A DNA stretch of 20,436 bases from a virus (Duplodnaviria; Heunggongvirae; Uroviricota; Caudoviricetes). The stretch is from the IMG/VR virus record IMGVR_UViG_2690316086_000007, positions 1 through 20,436 of that record. One strand, written 5' to 3'. Below, piece after piece: positions 1 through 20,436 of this stretch; within the stretch, counting starts at the first letter, position 1; each line of letters starts with the position of its first letter. The notes under the pieces are model-generated. The model did no database searches, was not told the origin of the DNA, and was given only the letters and a program-made list of their open reading frames with translations. A program made the position numbers and the translations under genes.

Positions 1-73
1 CATCCTGACTTTCCAGAACCATACGAATCGCCCGCTGACGGACTTCGGGGGAAAAACGAGTATTTTTAGTCAT
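1..73 (-). CDS. IS3-family transposase OrfA, N-terminal 24 codons only (partial, runs off window)
   Basis: Minus-strand ATG at 71-73 preceded by GAGG RBS; translation MTKNTRFSPEVRQRAIRMVLESQD. It differs from the right-hand copy at two residues (I/V, D/G). Confidence 0.8.
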   Translation of the reverse strand, partial: MTKNTRFSPEVRQRAIRMVLESQD

Positions 74-127
74 CCTGTTTACCTCTTTCTCAGGGAGTTT
101 AGTCTCCAGGATTTCCGGGGCGGTTCA
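1..127 (-). mobile_element. IS3-family insertion sequence (IS629/IS3411-like), partial: terminal inverted repeat plus 5' end of orfA; element continues beyond window start
   Basis: Reverse complement of 1-127 reads TGAACCGCCCCGGAAATCCTGGAGACTAAACTCCCTGAGAAAGAGGTAAACAGGATG..., which is also found in direct orientation at 20310-20436. The terminus TGAACCGCCCC and the OrfA N-terminus MTKNTRFSPEVRQRA match the IS629-type IS3 family as I recall it. Confidence 0.85.
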
Positions 128-217
128 CAACGCGCCATCCGTTACTACCTTGAGGCAGACAAAAAGGCTCTGGAAGAACAGGAAGCGAAGGAGGAAGCCT
201 TTTTCGCACAATCCACC

Positions 218-2851
218 GTGGGTAAAAAACTCATGGCATCCCTTGAGGAAGCCGGACAGCGTGAAAAGCTGGCACAAAGCATCATCAGCAAGCGTCAGGC
301 AACAGAACAAGACCCGGTGGCCCGTGCTTTTGCCACACTGAAGGTGCTTCCCGTTTATCTGCGTGAACCTCTGAGCCGCCACCTCTCTTTCCTGCGCAAA
401 AAACAGGAAGCCGATCGCCAGAAAGGCAAAAAGAGCTGGCAGGCTGAACGCTACGCGCGCGGAACCCTGCGCAAAATATTCGAACGTCTGGACCGCACCG
501 ATCACCGCTGGCTGACACCGGGTTATCGCTCCCTTGCCGGACGCGAACGCCTGGACGATTTGCTTTACCTGCCGCAGCTCAACAAACACCAGATACAGAC
601 GCTGGCCACCATGACGGCGGCGATGTTCAGCAGCACCTTCGAAAAACTCTGCGATGGCTTTGGCGCGACTGATGGCGAACTGACCATGGATGTAACGCTG
701 AAGGCGTATCAGATGCTGGCCCGCATGGCGTTACACCTGCACGCCATGCCTCCACATTATGACGCACTGACAACAGACAAAGACCGGAGGAACGAACCGG
801 ACACGGAGCTGCTGCCGGGCGCAATCCTTCGCCTGACCTGTGCGGAATGGTGGAAACGCAAACTGTGGCTGTTACGTTGCGAGTGGAGAGAAGAACAACT
901 CCGCGCCGCCTGTCTGGTTTCCAGAAAAACATCACCCTATCTGAGCCAGGACGCGTTAAGCGAGTTTCGCGCACAGCGCGAGAAAACACGCGATTTCCTG
1001 AAAAGTTTCATGCTGGAAAATGAAGACGGGTTCACGATTGATCTCGAGACAGTGTATTACGCGGGAGTAAGTAACCCGGTTCACCGTAAGGCAGAAATGA
1101 TGGCCACCATGAAGGGGCTGGAACTTCTGGCCGAAGCCCGTGGCGACAGAGCGGTGTTTCTGACTGTCACCTGCCCGTCAAAATACCACGCAACAACGGA
1201 GAACGGTCATCCGAATCCCAAATGGAACGGGGCCACTATGCACGACTCCAGCGATTACCTGGTTAACACGTTTTTTGCGGCGGTCCGCAAAAAACTGAAC
1301 CGCGACGGCCTGCGCTGGTATGGCATCCGCACGGTGGAGCCTCATCATGACGGCACGGTGCACTGGCACATGATGGTTTTTGCTCATCCTGACGAGATTG
1401 TAACCATCGTGTCCCACGTCTGCGATATTGCCATTCAGGAAGACCGCCACGAGCTGGGCAATGACATAACTCCGCGTTTTAAGGCGGAGTACGTCGACGG
1501 CTCAAAAGGCACGCCAACCAGCTACATCGCCACCTACATCGGAAAGAACCTGGACAGCCGCGCCGTGGATGGCATCGACCCGAAAACGGGCAAGCCACGC
1601 GTTGACCACGAAACAGGTAAATCAATGGCCGAGAGCGTGGAGCGCGCCATCGGCTGGGCGCGCCTTCACCGGGTCCGTCAGTTCCAGTTCTTTGGCATCC
1701 CCTCCCGTCAGGTGTGGCGTGAACTGCGCCGCCTTGCCAGCCAGATGGCACGCAATCCGGAAGGCCCGCAACGGCTGAAAGATGATGCAATGGATGCGGT
1801 ACTCGCTGCCGCCGATGCCGGGTGTTTTGCCACCTACATTGAAAAACAGGGTGGCGTGCTTGTTCCACGCAAGGACTACCTGATTCGCACCGCCTACGAC
1901 CTCGCAGATGAGCTGAACGATTACGGCGAACAGAGCGTACAGATTTACGGGATCTGGTCACCACTCATCGGGGAATCCTCCCGTGTGTGCACGCATCCGG
2001 ATAACTGGAAGCTGGTAAGACGTAAACCAGAACCGGAAGACAACGCCCACGAAAATGGTTTTGACCTTCAGGGCGGCCCTGCCGCCCCTTGGACTCGTGG
2101 CAATAACTGTCCCCGTGTACAGGAAACGGACAACAACGGGACAGAACAGCCGGAAGAACGGCCAGCACCGTGGCCGCAGCTTCCTGACGGCGTTGAAGTG
2201 AACGAATGGATGCATTCACTGAAACGGCACGAACGCCGGGCGCTGATGCGTTCGCTTCGTGACAAACAGGCAAAAAACAGCAGCGATGAAATGCAGAACT
2301 GGACACAGAGCCGCAAACAGCCACAGCCTTTGCCTGATAACCACGAGTTACTCGCTAAAGAATGGCGGGAGTCTGCTGAATCTCTCGGCCTGCATATTGG
2401 TGAACAGCAGATGCAGCACCTGTTACGGGGCGGCAGCCTGTACGTTGACGGCAGCATCATTGCACCGCAGGGATTTGAAATTGTACGCAAACCGGATACC
2501 CGCCCGGACAGCCAAATCACGCAGCTCTGGCAGCGCCTGAGCCGTAATCACGGCGTAAGCAGCACGGAGATCCGCCATAACCCGGTCGCCAGCTATCTGG
2601 AACAGCTGGGGGCATCAGACCCCGAAGCCGCCGCACGTCTGGTATCCACACTTCAGCAGGACCAGAACACCATGCCCACCCCCGTTACCGTGCTTTCTGA
2701 CATGCTGCGCGCCATCCGTGACGCAGAGCACGCACAGAGAATCAGTGAAACCACTGAACGCGCCCACCGCAAAGCAGACCTGCTGCGGGGTAGCCTGACC
2801 AGTGGAAACAAAAAAACAGACAGAAACGGGATTCACAAATCCCGTAAATGA
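218..2851 (+). CDS. A: Rolling-circle replication initiation endonuclease, P2 gpA family
   Basis: 877-aa ORF with motifs TVTCPSKYH, VEPHHDGTVHWHMMVF (HUH-type), YIATYIGKNLDS and GWARLHRVRQFQFFGIP, collinear with P2 gpA as recalled. Start is uncertain (GTG 218 or ATG 233), and the frame stays open upstream to the IS junction at 128. Confidence 0.85.
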   Translation: MGKKLMASLEEAGQREKLAQSIISKRQATEQDPVARAFATLKVLPVYLREPLSRHLSFLRKKQEADRQKGKKSWQAERYARGTLRKIFERLDRTDHRWLTPGYRSLAGRERLDDLLYLPQLNKHQIQTLATMTAAMFSSTFEKLCDGFGATDGELTMDVTLKAYQMLARMALHLHAMPPHYDALTTDKDRRNEPDTELLPGAILRLTCAEWWKRKLWLLRCEWREEQLRAACLVSRKTSPYLSQDALSEFRAQREKTRDFLKSFMLENEDGFTIDLETVYYAGVSNPVHRKAEMMATMKGLELLAEARGDRAVFLTVTCPSKYHATTENGHPNPKWNGATMHDSSDYLVNTFFAAVRKKLNRDGLRWYGIRTVEPHHDGTVHWHMMVFAHPDEIVTIVSHVCDIAIQEDRHELGNDITPRFKAEYVDGSKGTPTSYIATYIGKNLDSRAVDGIDPKTGKPRVDHETGKSMAESVERAIGWARLHRVRQFQFFGIPSRQVWRELRRLASQMARNPEGPQRLKDDAMDAVLAAADAGCFATYIEKQGGVLVPRKDYLIRTAYDLADELNDYGEQSVQIYGIWSPLIGESSRVCTHPDNWKLVRRKPEPEDNAHENGFDLQGGPAAPWTRGNNCPRVQETDNNGTEQPEERPAPWPQLPDGVEVNEWMHSLKRHERRALMRSLRDKQAKNSSDEMQNWTQSRKQPQPLPDNHELLAKEWRESAESLGLHIGEQQMQHLLRGGSLYVDGSIIAPQGFEIVRKPDTRPDSQITQLWQRLSRNHGVSSTEIRHNPVASYLEQLGASDPEAAARLVSTLQQDQNTMPTPVTVLSDMLRAIRDAEHAQRISETTERAHRKADLLRGSLTSGNKKTDRNGIHKSRK

Positions 2852-2952: not shown

Positions 2953-3912
2953 ATGAAAATTTGTATCGACGACGGCTCCACCAACATCAAGCTGGCATGG
3001 GCTGAGAACGGCGAACGCCGCAACGCCATCAGCCCGAACAGCTTCAAGTCGGAATGGTCTGCGCCGTTCGGTGGCACGCAGCCCGCGAACTACATGCTTG
3101 ATGGCGTGCGCTATGGTTTTGATCCGGTCAGCGATCGCTTTGTCCAGACGACCGACACGCAATACCAGTACAGCGATGTGAATGTCATTGCCATTCATCA
3201 CGCACTGGTCAAATCAGGCATCACGCCACAGGAGGTGGATGTGGTTGTCACCCTGCCACTGAGCGAGTATTTCGACACAAACGCACAGCCGGATATGGCC
3301 AACATCAGCCGCAAAAAATCGAACGTTATGCGCCCGGTGGAGTACCAGAACGGCGAAGCATTCACTATCCGTAACGTACGGGTTATGCCTGAATCCATTC
3401 CGGCTGGCTTTAAAGCACTGGCTGACATGAGTCCGTTTGAATCCCTGCTGATTGTGGATTTAGGCGGAACCACACTGGATGTGGCAAAGGTTCAGGGGCA
3501 ACTGGCAGGTATCAGCCAGGTGTTTTGCGATCCACACGTAGGCGTTTCCCTGATGGCCGATGCCGTACTGTCGGTGATGGCCACTAACGGTATGCGTACC
3601 AGTCACCACATCGCCAATACCATTATCGAACATCGCCATGATGAAGCCTGGTTGCGCCAGCACATCCACAATGACGCGCATTACGCCAGCCTGATGGCGG
3701 TTATTCGTGAAAAGGAAGAAACACTGAAACAACGCGTGATCCGCGCGCTGGCGGGCTTTTCGGGTTACGGGCGGGTGATGGTTGTCGGTGGCGGGGCGGA
3801 GATTGTGGCACCCGCTATCCGCGAAGCCTGCGGAGTTAATGCGACTTTCATCGCGGACGGGGTGCCACAGTTTGCTCTGGTTAATGGGCTGTACGCAATG
3901 GACAAGGAGTAA
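2953..3912 (+). CDS. parM: ParM/StbA-family actin-like segregation ATPase
   Basis: 319 aa; collinear similarity to plasmid R1 ParM as recalled (IDDGSTNIKL, ISPNSFK, YSDVNV..HHAL, VMPESIPAG, IDLGGTTLD, FSGY, VGGGAEI, LVNG). RBS AAGGA 8 nt upstream of ATG. Confidence 0.85.
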   Translation: MKICIDDGSTNIKLAWAENGERRNAISPNSFKSEWSAPFGGTQPANYMLDGVRYGFDPVSDRFVQTTDTQYQYSDVNVIAIHHALVKSGITPQEVDVVVTLPLSEYFDTNAQPDMANISRKKSNVMRPVEYQNGEAFTIRNVRVMPESIPAGFKALADMSPFESLLIVDLGGTTLDVAKVQGQLAGISQVFCDPHVGVSLMADAVLSVMATNGMRTSHHIANTIIEHRHDEAWLRQHIHNDAHYASLMAVIREKEETLKQRVIRALAGFSGYGRVMVVGGGAEIVAPAIREACGVNATFIADGVPQFALVNGLYAMDKE

Positions 3913-3916
3913 ACCA

Positions 3917-4228
3917 ATGACGACACCAACCAGACGGATAAGTTTCTATCTGAAGCCCGCCGCCGTCAAGAACGAAGGCGAAGCATGCGCCTGGCTGGAC
4001 AGCCTTACACCAGAAGCCCGCAAAAGTGGTCAACGCGTGGCTTTTCTGGCCGGACTGGCACTTATGAAAATTAATCCGGCAGAGGCTTACCGACTGGCTG
4101 CATGGGCTGACGATGAAGCGTTATCCCTGACACAAACCAGGACAGAACGCCCCGCATCACAGCCAGTATCAACCGCACAGATAACCAGTCAGATGGCCGG
4201 AAATATCCGGGCGTTATTTCCTGAATAA
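3917..4228 (+). CDS. parR: ParR/StbB-like partition adaptor (ribbon-helix-helix type)
   Basis: 103 aa from ATG 3917, 4 nt after the parM stop, with GGAG RBS. Similar to R1 ParR as recalled (ISFYLKP.., AFLAGLAL, C-terminal ..RALFPE). The longer ORF from 3782 overlaps parM and is rejected. Confidence 0.7.
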   Translation: MTTPTRRISFYLKPAAVKNEGEACAWLDSLTPEARKSGQRVAFLAGLALMKINPAEAYRLAAWADDEALSLTQTRTERPASQPVSTAQITSQMAGNIRALFPE

Positions 4229-4291: not shown

Positions 4292-4675
4292 ATGAGCGAA
4301 ATCAACTATCAGGCATTACGTGAACGTTATTCACCTGTGCCAGTACCGAAATGCCCTATTTGCGGCGAGGAAATGTCAATTCAGCGAATATCTGGAGCAC
4401 AGGTTGTTTATGCCTGCTCCGGTTATGGTGATGATGGAGATTTCAAAATTGGCCGAACTCTTGCCGACGAACATTATGAAAAATCACGCGTAACAGTGTT
4501 GGATGTCGGGAATCCTGAAGTATTGGCGCTACTTGATTGGCTGGAAACCAAAGACAACCGAATCGCTGAACTGGAAAAAATCGCCACTGACTATGCACTT
4601 AAATTACAGAAAGCACAGGACGCATTAAAGTACGCCGCTTTGCTGCATAGCAGGACAGCGCAGCTACAAGACTAA
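4292..4675 (+). CDS. Hypothetical protein with N-terminal Cys motif (CPICGEE..YACSGYG) and C-terminal predicted coiled coil
   Basis: 127-aa ORF with AAGAGA RBS-like sequence 8-9 nt upstream; lower GC than flanking phage genes. I recognise no homolog. Confidence 0.5.
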   Translation: MSEINYQALRERYSPVPVPKCPICGEEMSIQRISGAQVVYACSGYGDDGDFKIGRTLADEHYEKSRVTVLDVGNPEVLALLDWLETKDNRIAELEKIATDYALKLQKAQDALKYAALLHSRTAQLQD

Positions 4676-4766
4676 CTTAAAGCGGAAGATTAATACATGG
4701 TGAGTCGGGGTAATTTGTTTTTATCCCGACAAATAAACAAAAAAAGTGGACTATCTCTGTAGTATC

Positions 4767-5297
4767 TTATTCAGCATCGTCTCGTGCAGTCTGTGCATAC
4801 GTCACAACAACGCCCAATGCATTAGTTTTCTTTTCAACATAGATAATATTGTCATATTCATAGTTACCATACGGATAGCAAATAAGAATATTTTTATGCA
4901 GATCGGGATCATCAACAAACGCTCCGGAACAGCTTCTTGAACTACCGGATGTATACTCATACGGTGCAACATATGGTGATGTTACTCCTGGTAAAAAATA
5001 AGTCACCATCATAAGAGGGATAATCAGGAATATCCCTGTAAGAATGCAAGAGCCAGCATAAACCTTCAGGTATTCCGACAGTCCTTTCCAGCCACTTTGC
5101 TTCACTACCCCCCTCTTCACCAGAAACAAGGAGAAGAAAAAGGACATACCCATACTACACAAGATGTAATAATTGGATATACGCGAATTAAGATATGTAA
5201 TCCTGTAGATATCTGCCCTCCACCAGTAAAAGAGGAAAATAATCCCTAGCACTGAAACAGTCATGCAAATCAAATAAGGATATGAATCTTTCTTCAT
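4767..5297 (-). CDS. Hypothetical integral membrane protein (3 predicted TM helices plus ~70-aa C-terminal domain), AT-rich cargo gene
   Basis: 176-aa ORF. Hydrophobic segments YLICMTVSVLGIIFLFYWW, YYILCSMGMSFFFSLFLV and SCILTGIFLIIPLMMVTYFL. Markedly AT-rich, with codon usage unlike the surrounding phage genes. Weak RBS. Confidence 0.5.
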   Translation of the reverse strand: MKKDSYPYLICMTVSVLGIIFLFYWWRADIYRITYLNSRISNYYILCSMGMSFFFSLFLVKRGVVKQSGWKGLSEYLKVYAGSCILTGIFLIIPLMMVTYFLPGVTSPYVAPYEYTSGSSRSCSGAFVDDPDLHKNILICYPYGNYEYDNIIYVEKKTNALGVVVTYAQTARDDAE

Positions 5298-5340
5298 GTC
5301 TTGCGCTCATTAAAATTTCCCTGCTACGAACAAATTTACC

Positions 5341-5826
5341 ATCCGTTTTTTGCGCAGAAAACAGCACGATGCACACTGCACGATAGTGCACAAATTTGCA
5401 CAATTTTTTTGAACGACTTTTTACCCTTCCGGCCCGCATGGCGGCTGGATCCGTCAAGGATCCGTGCGTGCACAAAAAAACGCGTTTTTTCTGCGCGCAG
5501 GTGACGGGGGAACAGCCCGCGTTTCAGGGGGTAAATAGCATTCCCTGAACGATGTCGCAGAGATACAACAGAATGGCTGTATTTCTCACGCTGAGCGTGA
5601 AAAAGACGTGAGGGCTTTTGATTTATGGGGTGAAAGGTAAGGCCGTCAAAATCGCACTGAGACGGCGAGAACATGCAGTCAACGCGGTGGGATTGCGTAA
5701 GAGTCTGACTGTCGATGGTGGCGATAAACTGGAAGGCGTCGTGAAATTATCTGACTGATACAGGAGCTGGAGAGTCGGGGCATAAATTTTTTATGCCCCG
5801 GCGAAGCAGCAGACAAGCGAAGCGCG
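5341..5826. other. Non-coding region between cargo slot and portal gene; expected location of the cos site and packaging signals by P2 synteny (exact cos not identified)
   Basis: No convincing ORF. Dense in direct and inverted repeats (TGCACA array 5364-5403; GGATCCGT x2 at 5447-5465; AAAAAACGCGTTTTTT palindrome 5474-5490; 11-bp-stem hairpin 5776-5800). In P2 the cos lies between old and Q. Confidence 0.4.
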
Positions 5827-20309: not shown

Positions 20310-20436
20310 TGAACCGCCCCGGAAATCCTGGAGACTAAACTCCCTGAGAAAGAGGTAAACAGGATGACTAAAAATACTCGTTTTTCCCCCGAGGTCCGTC
20401 AACGGGCAGTTCGTATGGTTCTGGAAAGTCAGGGCG
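20310..20436 (+). mobile_element. IS3-family insertion sequence (IS629/IS3411-like), partial: terminal inverted repeat plus 5' end of orfA; element continues beyond window end
   Basis: TGAACCGCCCCGGAAATCCTGGAGACTAAACTCCCTGAGAAAGAGGTAAACAGGATGACTAAAAATACTCG...; inverted copy of 1-127, with 6 mismatches clustered in the last ~45 bp. Confidence 0.85.
20364..20436 (+). CDS. IS3-family transposase OrfA, N-terminal 24 codons only (partial, runs off window)
   Basis: ATG 20364 with GAGG RBS; MTKNTRFSPEVRQRAVRMVLESQG, which matches the canonical IS629-type OrfA N-terminus as recalled. Confidence 0.8.
   Translation, partial: MTKNTRFSPEVRQRAVRMVLESQG

Follow-up and report, generated by a model that had tools for sequence, protein, structure and literature searches.

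Does an insertion element that borders a phage replication gene lie just ahead of that gene, or has it broken the gene itself? The question is raised by the left end of a Caudoviricetes stretch of 20,436 nucleotides (IMG/VR record IMGVR_UViG_2690316086_000007, positions 1 to 20,436), which we refer to as the window. Here the reading frame of gene A, which encodes the replication protein gpA, is open all the way back to the terminus of an insertion sequence at position 127, and its first possible start codons are GTG 218 and ATG 233. The initial annotation had described this arrangement correctly and had left both possibilities standing. We now think it very probable that an IS1203 insertion after codon 32 has split gene A of a P88-like prophage, with a likely loss of replication initiation. 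The features of the junction are as follows.

1-127, minus strand: left end (IRL side) of IS1203, an IS629 isoform of the IS3 family, identified by sequence matches and the PGAP annotation
128-130, plus strand: CAA, codon 32 (Gln) of gene A, which doubles as the right-hand copy of the target-site duplication (3 bp)
128-217, plus strand: gene A codons 32-61, continuing in the frame of the remaining gene, recognised by homology to relatives
128-2851, plus strand: 3' remnant of the gpA replication endonuclease gene, 907 codons, identified by PF05840 and PGAP
218-235, plus strand: candidate restart codons GTG 218 (residue 62) and ATG 233 (residue 67)

Position of the IS1203 element

An IS1203/IS629 element of the IS3 family has its left end in window positions 1-127, which thousands of IS copies match at 97-99%, and the PGAP label of the element at the window start is "IS3-like element IS1203 family transposase". 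The terminal sequence is ...CGGGGCGGTTCA, with its last base at 127. The ATG of the transposase orfA lies at 73-71 on the minus strand, so that the transposase reads toward the window start and away from A, as had been noted before. The complete IS1203 is 1310 bp long (L004 7818-9127), and its terminal inverted repeats (ends TGAACCGCCCCGG...) are imperfect, 22 of the first 25 nt being matched. The element thus has the marks of the IS3 family: a length of about 1.3 kb, imperfect inverted repeats beginning TG...CA and a target-site duplication within the 3-4 bp range, CAA standing on both sides. In the IS3 family a DDE transposase is made by programmed -1 frameshifting between two overlapping ORFs, and PGAP annotates the transposase here with a "programmed frameshift" and an AL1L pseudoknot, as a non-pseudo product (WP_171877072.1).

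The far side of the element, where the initial annotation had proposed to look for gene B/cox, is found in E. coli O103 ML775, a genome 99.95% identical to the window. There, behind the upstream genes, codons 1-32 of A run directly into the IS's own TGA, its first triplet. When the IS and one CAA are removed, the empty site of O121 strain RM8352 is exactly restored over 387 of 387 nt. The element is therefore inside gene A and not just upstream of it: it follows codon 32, and the duplicated CAA is that codon.

Is the stretch between the element and the first start codon really part of the gene? Window 2-217 is free of stops in the frame of the 218-2851 ORF; in a source-like genome the nearest in-frame upstream stop is found within the IS, 10 nt ahead of the window, and no ATG, GTG or TTG occurs between this stop and 218. 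The 30 codons of 128-217 translate as QRAIRYYLEADKKALEEQEAKEEAFFAQST, and the protein-like, E/K-rich composition remarked on earlier does hold. A run of 30 open codons has a probability of about 0.24 in random sequence and is not significant alone, and we regard 128-217 as coding because of its homology to IS-free relatives rather than the length of the open run. Residue by residue it can be aligned to codons 32-61 of their intact 946-aa gpA (941 aa in Salmonella), its conservation at the protein level extends to relatives 73% and 38% identical over the N-terminal region, and in six relatives no frame other than that of A is free of stops across the first 300 nt. The ratios of synonymous to non-synonymous changes in codons 1-100 among close relatives (4:3, 5:6 and 5:2) come from counts too small to inform.

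Intact A starts 93 nt before the equivalent of position 128, that is, 61 codons before 218, at an ATG overlapping the stop of the preceding gene (ATGA). The isolated phage PhiR44_2 has its A annotated at this earlier start, and phage Chuche has the same start in a slightly shorter A (938 aa). Had homologues begun at 218, the 90 bp of 128-217 would be non-coding in IS-free relatives; they are coding in all of them. A product made from GTG218 would lack 61 residues and one made from ATG233 would lack 66. The initial annotation had estimated a shortfall of about 15 residues from P2 A. This arithmetic can be reproduced, the first block shared with P2 A being preceded by 36 residues in the GTG218 ORF and by 52 in P2 A, but P2 is not the right standard; the true loss is the 61 or 66 seen against homologues of the same lineage, in whose intact protein 97 residues precede that block. 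Of the lost residues, 31 are still encoded beyond the IS together with the duplicated Gln32, in a 32-codon stub closed by TGA.

Catalytic core, N-terminal motif and expression signals

Gene A encodes an HUH nicking initiator of rolling-circle replication; proteins of the P2 gpA family nick site-specifically at an origin that lies within their own gene. The Phage_GPA profile (PF05840) is matched over positions 1-321 of 321 with 428 bits, where the gathering score is 31.4. The HWH motif (H443-W444-H445) and the tyrosines Y497 and Y501 are invariant in 24 homologues and both are present in the window ORF; the tyrosine pair, YIATY, aligns with YIAKY of P2 A, whose active-site tyrosines are Y450 and Y454. 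Identity to P2 A is 31% over 672 residues, and the two proteins have the Phage_GPA domain, HWH, the paired tyrosines and a WNxPRxA motif in common, whereas the intact protein of this lineage, at 946 aa against 761 aa, has a longer C-terminal region. A PDB sequence search returned no homologue, and NCBIfam gave no match for A, for the upstream 129-aa gene or for the parR-like gene.

The part that is missing from the remnant contains a motif, [FY]xWxW[NQ]xP[RK]xA[IV], which occurs in P2 and P88, in phages from three more genera and, in part, in another, represented by Enterobacter phage phiT5282H. Among 24 database representatives, with identities as low as 56%, W8, P11 and A14 of the motif never vary, and the next invariant column in this set is P106. 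The IS separates the remnant from this motif and from the start codon; the window does not contain a complete coding sequence of the gpA family but a gene fragment homologous to it, a pseudogene. This status is already in the public annotation, in which PGAP calls gene A a pseudogene ("incomplete; missing N-terminus; frameshifted"). Taking GTG218 as the start would yield a false "intact" replication protein of 877 aa. Residues 15-101 of gpA are poorly conserved. For an intact homologue of 946 aa, AlphaFold2 run with 24 sequences produced a model (pLDDT 60, pTM 0.33) too poor to place the N-terminus against the catalytic domain; in it the N-terminus has low confidence and residues 1-29 are predicted to be unstructured. 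A homologue search with the N-terminal 171 aa found only short partial proteins, one of them with a 73%-identical N-terminus (P0005); these matches are probably cut short by contig breaks at the border between the variable module and the conserved core.

The gene carries a second lesion, absent from the initial annotation, near its 3' end.

2810-2816, plus strand: A7 homopolymer (A6 in intact genes), a +1 frameshift

As a result, the last 19 residues give way to 11 and the stop is shifted from 2874-2876 to 2849-2851. In a comparison made with a 67-nt query, the same frameshift is common to nine IS-free O121 genomes, and it predates the arrival of the IS.

Can the remnant still be expressed? 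As it stands, 128-217 contains no ATG, GTG or TTG and is untranslatable. There is no convincing, above-background Shine-Dalgarno sequence ahead of 218 or 233: the dG of the anti-SD duplex is +1.9 at 218 and -3.9 at 233, compared with a weak -4.1 at the native start, and 44% of positions inside gene A reach -3.0 or lower. No sigma-70-like promoter turned up on either strand when window 1-600 and the entire IS with its flanks were scanned for the consensus, a weak negative, since the scan was stringent and missed even the IS's own transposase promoter. No LexA box was found upstream of A, and the IS strand antisense to the transposase carries one weak terminator-like hairpin.

The P88-like prophage around gene A

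Downstream of A, two partition genes lie in the same rightward block and hence are likewise downstream of the IS.

2953-3912, plus strand: parM
3917-4228, plus strand: parR-like partition gene

The annotated order is int, repressor, early ORFs, A, parMR, portal, terminase and scaffold, followed by P2-family capsid, lysis, baseplate and tail fibre genes. With its structural and early gene set in the P2/P88 order, the prophage belongs to the P2 family (Peduoviridae) and is P88-like. A further IS-associated rearrangement is seen at its tail module. Upstream of A there are about 12 small ORFs, and a terminator-like hairpin and a promoter-like site are found about 0.9 kb away. Unlike in P2, the upstream operon has no annotated gene B, and parM and parR follow A. 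This bears on the earlier suggestion that A has been cut off from a cox-B-A promoter. The separation itself is real, as 1310 bp of IS stand between A and everything upstream, but the operon is P88-like and not the cox-B-A operon of P2.

The order of small early ORFs, A, parM and parR is shared with P88 (Xuanwuvirus, Peduoviridae), PhiR44_2 and Chuche, in all of which A is uninterrupted. Over the A region compared, identity to PhiR44_2 and Chuche is 95-97% across the whole N-terminus, and identity to the P88-type A is about 97% from residue 95 on, whereas the N-terminal module of P88, of about 90 residues, differs and is 38% identical.

It has been reported that 62% of the IS629 copies in four O157:H7 genomes lie within prophages or prophage-like elements and that IS629 makes target duplications of 3-4 bp (PMC3271280). 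The insertion described here resembles the IS629/IS1203 prophage insertions of E. coli that produce Shiga toxin (STEC) in family, in its length of 1310 bp, in its 3-bp duplication, in the preference for prophages and in gene disruption, and its mechanism is no different. What differs is the site, codon 32 of a P88-like A: this junction is present in 1 of 5426 complete E. coli genomes, and the uninterrupted site is present in 405. The event is routine IS-mediated prophage decay, an ordinary gene knock-out.

Competing readings and the fate of the prophage

In the sequence of events that we favor, an IS1203 copy jumped into gene A of a P88-like prophage of the P2 family that was integrated in its host, landing directly after codon 32 and duplicating its CAA. 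The 5' stub of 32 codons keeps the upstream genes and the native start, which is translationally coupled, in front of it and ends on TGA. The 3' remnant of 907 codons is left with no start for 30 codons, no recognisable promoter and no above-background ribosome-binding site, and restarting at GTG218 or ATG233 would give a protein deprived of residues 1-61 or 1-66 and, with them, of the family-invariant N-terminal motif. The sequence shows the insertion and its exact position, the duplication, and the absence of the start and of the motif; from these features we infer that the expression and function of A are lost. Since A is an HUH initiator and P2 A reportedly acts preferentially in cis, the prophage is probably replication-defective; most likely it would be unable to begin its own DNA replication after induction. 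Several observations weigh against a loss of function. The catalytic core, with the Pfam domain, HWH and both tyrosines, is intact; the SD of the native start is also weak, which is compatible with low-level initiation at ATG233; upstream transcription could in principle cross the IS antisense to the transposase; and with residues 15-101 so poorly conserved, the essentiality of the N-terminus is only putative.

Could the remnant be expressed after all, by read-through or IS-borne transcription and a start at ATG233, to give a truncated gpA that is partly active or inhibits in trans? We consider this unlikely. A loose parallel exists in the A* protein of phiX174, which is made from an internal start in gene A. 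The intact catalytic domain and active-site residues would suit such a product, as would an SD-like match at ATG233 as good as that of the native start, the lack of a strong terminator on the read-through strand of the IS, and an N-terminal part that is variable over residues 15-101 and predicted to be unstructured over residues 1-29. However, that SD match is at background level, scanning of window 1-600 and the entire IS with its flanks revealed no promoter-like site, and about 1.4 kb of untranslated RNA past the stop of the stub would favour Rho-dependent polarity. Such a product would also be without the invariant motif, database entries with a short N-terminus are rare singletons (P0063 and P0138), and M62 and M67 are missing from the P88-type N-terminal module; on this last ground a conserved internal start of the A* kind was rejected.

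The remaining readings concern the junction itself. Mis-joining of an IS copy to the prophage contig during assembly is a natural suspicion for a multicopy element, as IS629/IS1203 occupies 10 places in the ML775 chromosome and repeats are classic points of mis-assembly. It is nevertheless highly improbable here: a closed chromosome contains both junctions, the 3-bp duplication is perfect, and the empty site is exactly restored. Furthermore, the window differs from the ML775 assembly by one SNP and one copy of a 10-bp repeat, a difference suggesting that a second assembly or isolate also contains the junction. We give almost no credence to an IS lying just upstream of an intact A that begins at GTG218 or ATG233, in which case only the promoter would be lost and 128-217 would be a non-coding leader. 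It is true that such an open run can arise by chance, that codon 62 is ATG in some relatives and that the N-terminus of P2 A is shorter than that of this lineage. But all IS-free relatives carry the frame 61 codons further, to the ATG overlapping the preceding stop; 128-217 is conserved as protein in the 73%- and 38%-identical homologues; the family-wide W8, P11 and A14 lie upstream of the junction; and the target duplication is exactly codon 32.

A knock-out by IS1203 thus remains our preferred explanation, and what it might mean beyond the loss is more speculative. STEC serotypes carrying iee include O103:H2 (PMC9397093), and IS1203 belongs to the IS3 family, as do the elements whose excision is promoted by IEE (the reversible lacZ::IS600 of O121:H19). 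Perhaps the IS acts as a reversible lock, or an A*-like initiator from ATG233 blocks incoming P2/P88-type phages, but we would rate either as very improbable. If the lock existed, simple excision promoted by IEE in a STEC host that carries iee would reunite the remnant with codons 1-32 and turn the replication initiator back on in a subpopulation; the A7 frameshift would outlast the excision.

Beyond bookkeeping the significance of the finding is small: the prophage should be scored as replication-defective, which bears on counts of inducible prophages in STEC genomes. For phage biologists, the N-terminal motif WxW[NQ]xP[RK]xA[IV] of the gpA family, strictly conserved and uncharacterised, may be of use, and in this lineage the first approximately 94 residues of A come as two exchangeable modules on a nearly identical core.

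An IS1203 copy within gene A

The first 127 nucleotides of the window are the left end of an IS3-family element and match thousands of IS1203/IS629 copies on E. coli plasmids and chromosomes at 97-99%. The last IS base is position 127 (terminal sequence ...CGGGGCGGTTCA). The transposase orfA has its start codon at 73-71 on the minus strand and is read away from the gene downstream, as the initial annotation had stated. From 128 the plus strand carries a long open reading frame, listed as 218..2851 (877 aa), in which the Pfam domain Phage_GPA is present at full length (428 bits; cut-off, 31.4 bits). Our analysis bore out the earlier reading that this frame is open from the IS end: there is no in-frame stop in 2-217, and no in-frame ATG, GTG or TTG ahead of GTG 218 and ATG 233.

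Did the element land just upstream of A or inside its 5' end? Both alternatives had been proposed, and relatives lacking the IS decide for the latter. In every such record tabulated, A begins 93 nt before the equivalent of position 128, so 128-217 correspond to codons 32-61 and the IS lies inside the gene. No intact homologue starts at the codon at 218, and the 90 bp upstream of it are coding. Over the first 300 nt of six relatives the A frame alone is stop-free, and at the protein level 128-217 aligns with the database gpA homologue P0005 (73% identity over the N-terminal region) and with P88-type homologues (38% over the same region). Judged by these alignments, the IS is within gene A and 128-217 is coding sequence.

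Gene A in IS-free records
E. coli 34.5-kb circular record NZ_CP148288.1: 946 aa
STEC411: 946 aa
Salmonella record: 941 aa
O121 chromosome (RM8352): 2842 nt, annotated as 'frameshifted'
PhiR44_2 (isolated phage): 946 aa
Chuche (isolated phage): 938 aa

Across its full length the window is 99.95% identical to the E. coli O103 ML775 chromosome (NZ_CP193495.1). A SNP at 2261, within gene A, is G versus A between window and ML775, and an intergenic 10-bp tandem repeat (TGCACAAATT; ~5386-5405) has two copies in the window and three in ML775; the window thus represents a very close but non-identical relative of that assembly. Beyond the window start, ML775 carries a full-length 1310-bp IS1203 annotated with an intact transposase via programmed frameshift; its terminal inverted repeats are imperfect (22/25 first nt match) and a CAA triplet flanks it on either side. 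On its far side the early genes of a P2-family prophage, which is integrated next to yecA, come to an end, and codons 1-32 of A (ATGAATGAG...CTGCAA) follow them. The gene just before A has 129 codons, and its stop overlaps the A start codon in the sequence ATGA. The IS begins with TGA, a stop immediately after codon 32 (CAA), so that the 5' piece encodes no more than MNEFAWSWNEPRPAIDPARFTEHRQETETDLQ. Without the IS and one CAA, the ML775 sequence matches the uninterrupted O121 RM8352 prophage at 387/387 positions. The insertion was by simple transposition and duplicated 3 bp of target, in agreement with the published description of IS629 (PMC3271280); the same study places 62% of the IS629/IS1203 copies of O157:H7 STEC in prophages, their main location. 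The IS-A junction occurs in exactly one of 5426 complete E. coli genomes, and the uninterrupted site in 405.

Expression of the remnant

P2 has the arrangement cox-B-A, whereas here no gene B is annotated and about a dozen small ORFs come after a Cox/Apl-like gene. Some 0.9 kb upstream of A, the 320-bp gap before a 'derepression protein' gene holds two sites:

ML775 locus L004 6833-6848: terminator-like hairpin with a T-run, consensus match only
L004 6866-6894: promoter-like site after the hairpin, consensus match only

No LexA box was found around L004 6833-6894. Gene A may lie in a different transcription unit from that of the Cox/Apl-proximal early promoter. The initial annotation held that A was cut off from an early cox-B-A promoter; the separation stands, as the IS parts A from its promoter, whichever promoter that is, but the cox-B-A layout does not apply here.

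Could the remnant still be expressed? A stringent scan of both strands detected no sigma-70-like site in window 1-600 or in the IS and its flanks. GTG 218 has no Shine-Dalgarno complementarity (dG +1.9 kcal/mol), and the score of ATG 233 (-3.9) is reached or nearly reached by 44% of intragenic positions. The native A start is just as weak (-4.1); it presumably relies on translational coupling via the ATGA overlap, a coupling that the insertion destroys. Transcripts started upstream could reach A only through the 1.3-kb IS, antisense to the transposase and untranslated past the TGA of the stub, which should favour Rho-dependent termination. Most probably, we infer, A is not made, despite its untouched catalytic core, in which the HWH motif is kept and the YIATY tyrosine pair aligns to YIAKY of P2 A. 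The insertion might instead be reversed by excision, or an A*-like truncated product might be made. IEE helps to excise IS3-family elements in STEC, and lacZ was restored in O121:H19 (PMC9397093); we found nothing positive for either route in this prophage and consider the two, even jointly, very improbable.

The severed N-terminus

The initial annotation put the protein about 15 residues short of P2 A. The arithmetic was sound, as 52 residues precede the first block shared with P2 A in P2 A itself and 36 in the GTG 218 frame, but intact A of this lineage has 97 at that place, and the true loss is 61 residues from GTG 218 or 66 from ATG 233.

O121 RM8352 locus L005 6908-7189: N-terminal module, codons 1-94 of A; codons 32-94 are window 128-316
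L004 7731-7766: motif [FY]xWxW[NQ]xP[RK]xA[IV], codons 4-15 of A, beyond the window start

A and P88-type A share about 97% identity from residue 95 onward, whereas the first ~94 residues of A form a different module, 38% identical; two exchangeable modules sit on this core. Contig breaks at the mosaic boundary probably explain the many gpA database entries of about 100-240 aa that are labelled 'partial'. In another database entry, P0023, the first ~165 residues of P88-type gpA are fused to the C-terminal end of ParM, which looks like a deletion of most of A and parM in another genome.

The severed part holds the sole strongly conserved N-terminal feature, the motif listed here. P2 A has it at about residues 24-33, and it recurs in P88 and in Kapieceevirus, Felsduovirus and Irrigatiovirus phages; its range runs from P2 to Klebsiella and Salmonella phages, and the Novemvirus phage phiT5282H has it in part only. 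In 24 database representatives with identities down to 56%, W8, P11 and A14 never vary and R12 hardly does, with no further invariant column before P106. N-terminally short gpA entries number 2 of 30 retrieved sequences (P0063 and P0138, each a singleton) and look like mis-called or damaged genes. AlphaFold2 gave a poor model of an intact 946-aa homologue (pLDDT 60, pTM 0.33), in which residues 1-29 are coil and 30-59 and 61-90 two long helices; with low confidence, the motif would lie in an unstructured segment. No sequence-related solved structure was found for gpA.

An older frameshift and wider decay of the prophage

A second lesion had been overlooked. An A7 run at 2810-2816, A6 in intact genes, causes a +1 frameshift, because of which the frame stops at 2851 instead of the equivalent of 2876 and 11 residues take the place of the last 19 of gpA. 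Ten complete genomes, those of ML775 and of nine O121 strains without the IS, contain the 67-mer spanning A7 without a mismatch, and 1114 have A6 between the same flanks; as the nine O121 genomes share A7, the frameshift predates the insertion. PGAP marks A as frameshifted in both ML775 and O121 RM8352. The extreme C-terminus is highly variable among full-length homologues, one of which (P0065) has the same alternative-frame tail.

The phage is P88-like, with parM and a parR-like gene after A as in P88 and PhiR44_2. NZ_CP148288.1, a relative deposited as a circular 'plasmid' of 34.5 kb, is an entire phage genome (int, cox, A, parMR, terminase), which hints that this phage type can persist extrachromosomally.

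Window 2953-4228: parM and parR-like partition cassette, directly downstream of A
Window 4292-5342 (L004 13292-14342) and L004 2818-3468: three further pseudogenes (PGAP)

The window closes, at 20310-20436, with the left end of another IS1203/IS629-like copy, in the orientation opposite to that of 1-127 (96.8% identical over 124 nt), so that inverted IS ends enclose the 20-kb prophage segment. In ML775 the second copy is interrupted by ISCro1 of the IS66 family (ML775 region L014, 5262-9182), and beyond it the tail genes FI-FII-E-T-U are inverted, suggesting an IS-associated inversion. The three further pseudogenes, marked in ML775 and in O121, are a truncated ead/Ea22-like gene, a frameshifted hypothetical gene and a gene near int with an internal stop. 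Gene A, which public annotation already flags as a pseudogene, has been disrupted by a routine IS insertion into a prophage that is decaying in several places; the additional pseudogenes are consistent with this decay.
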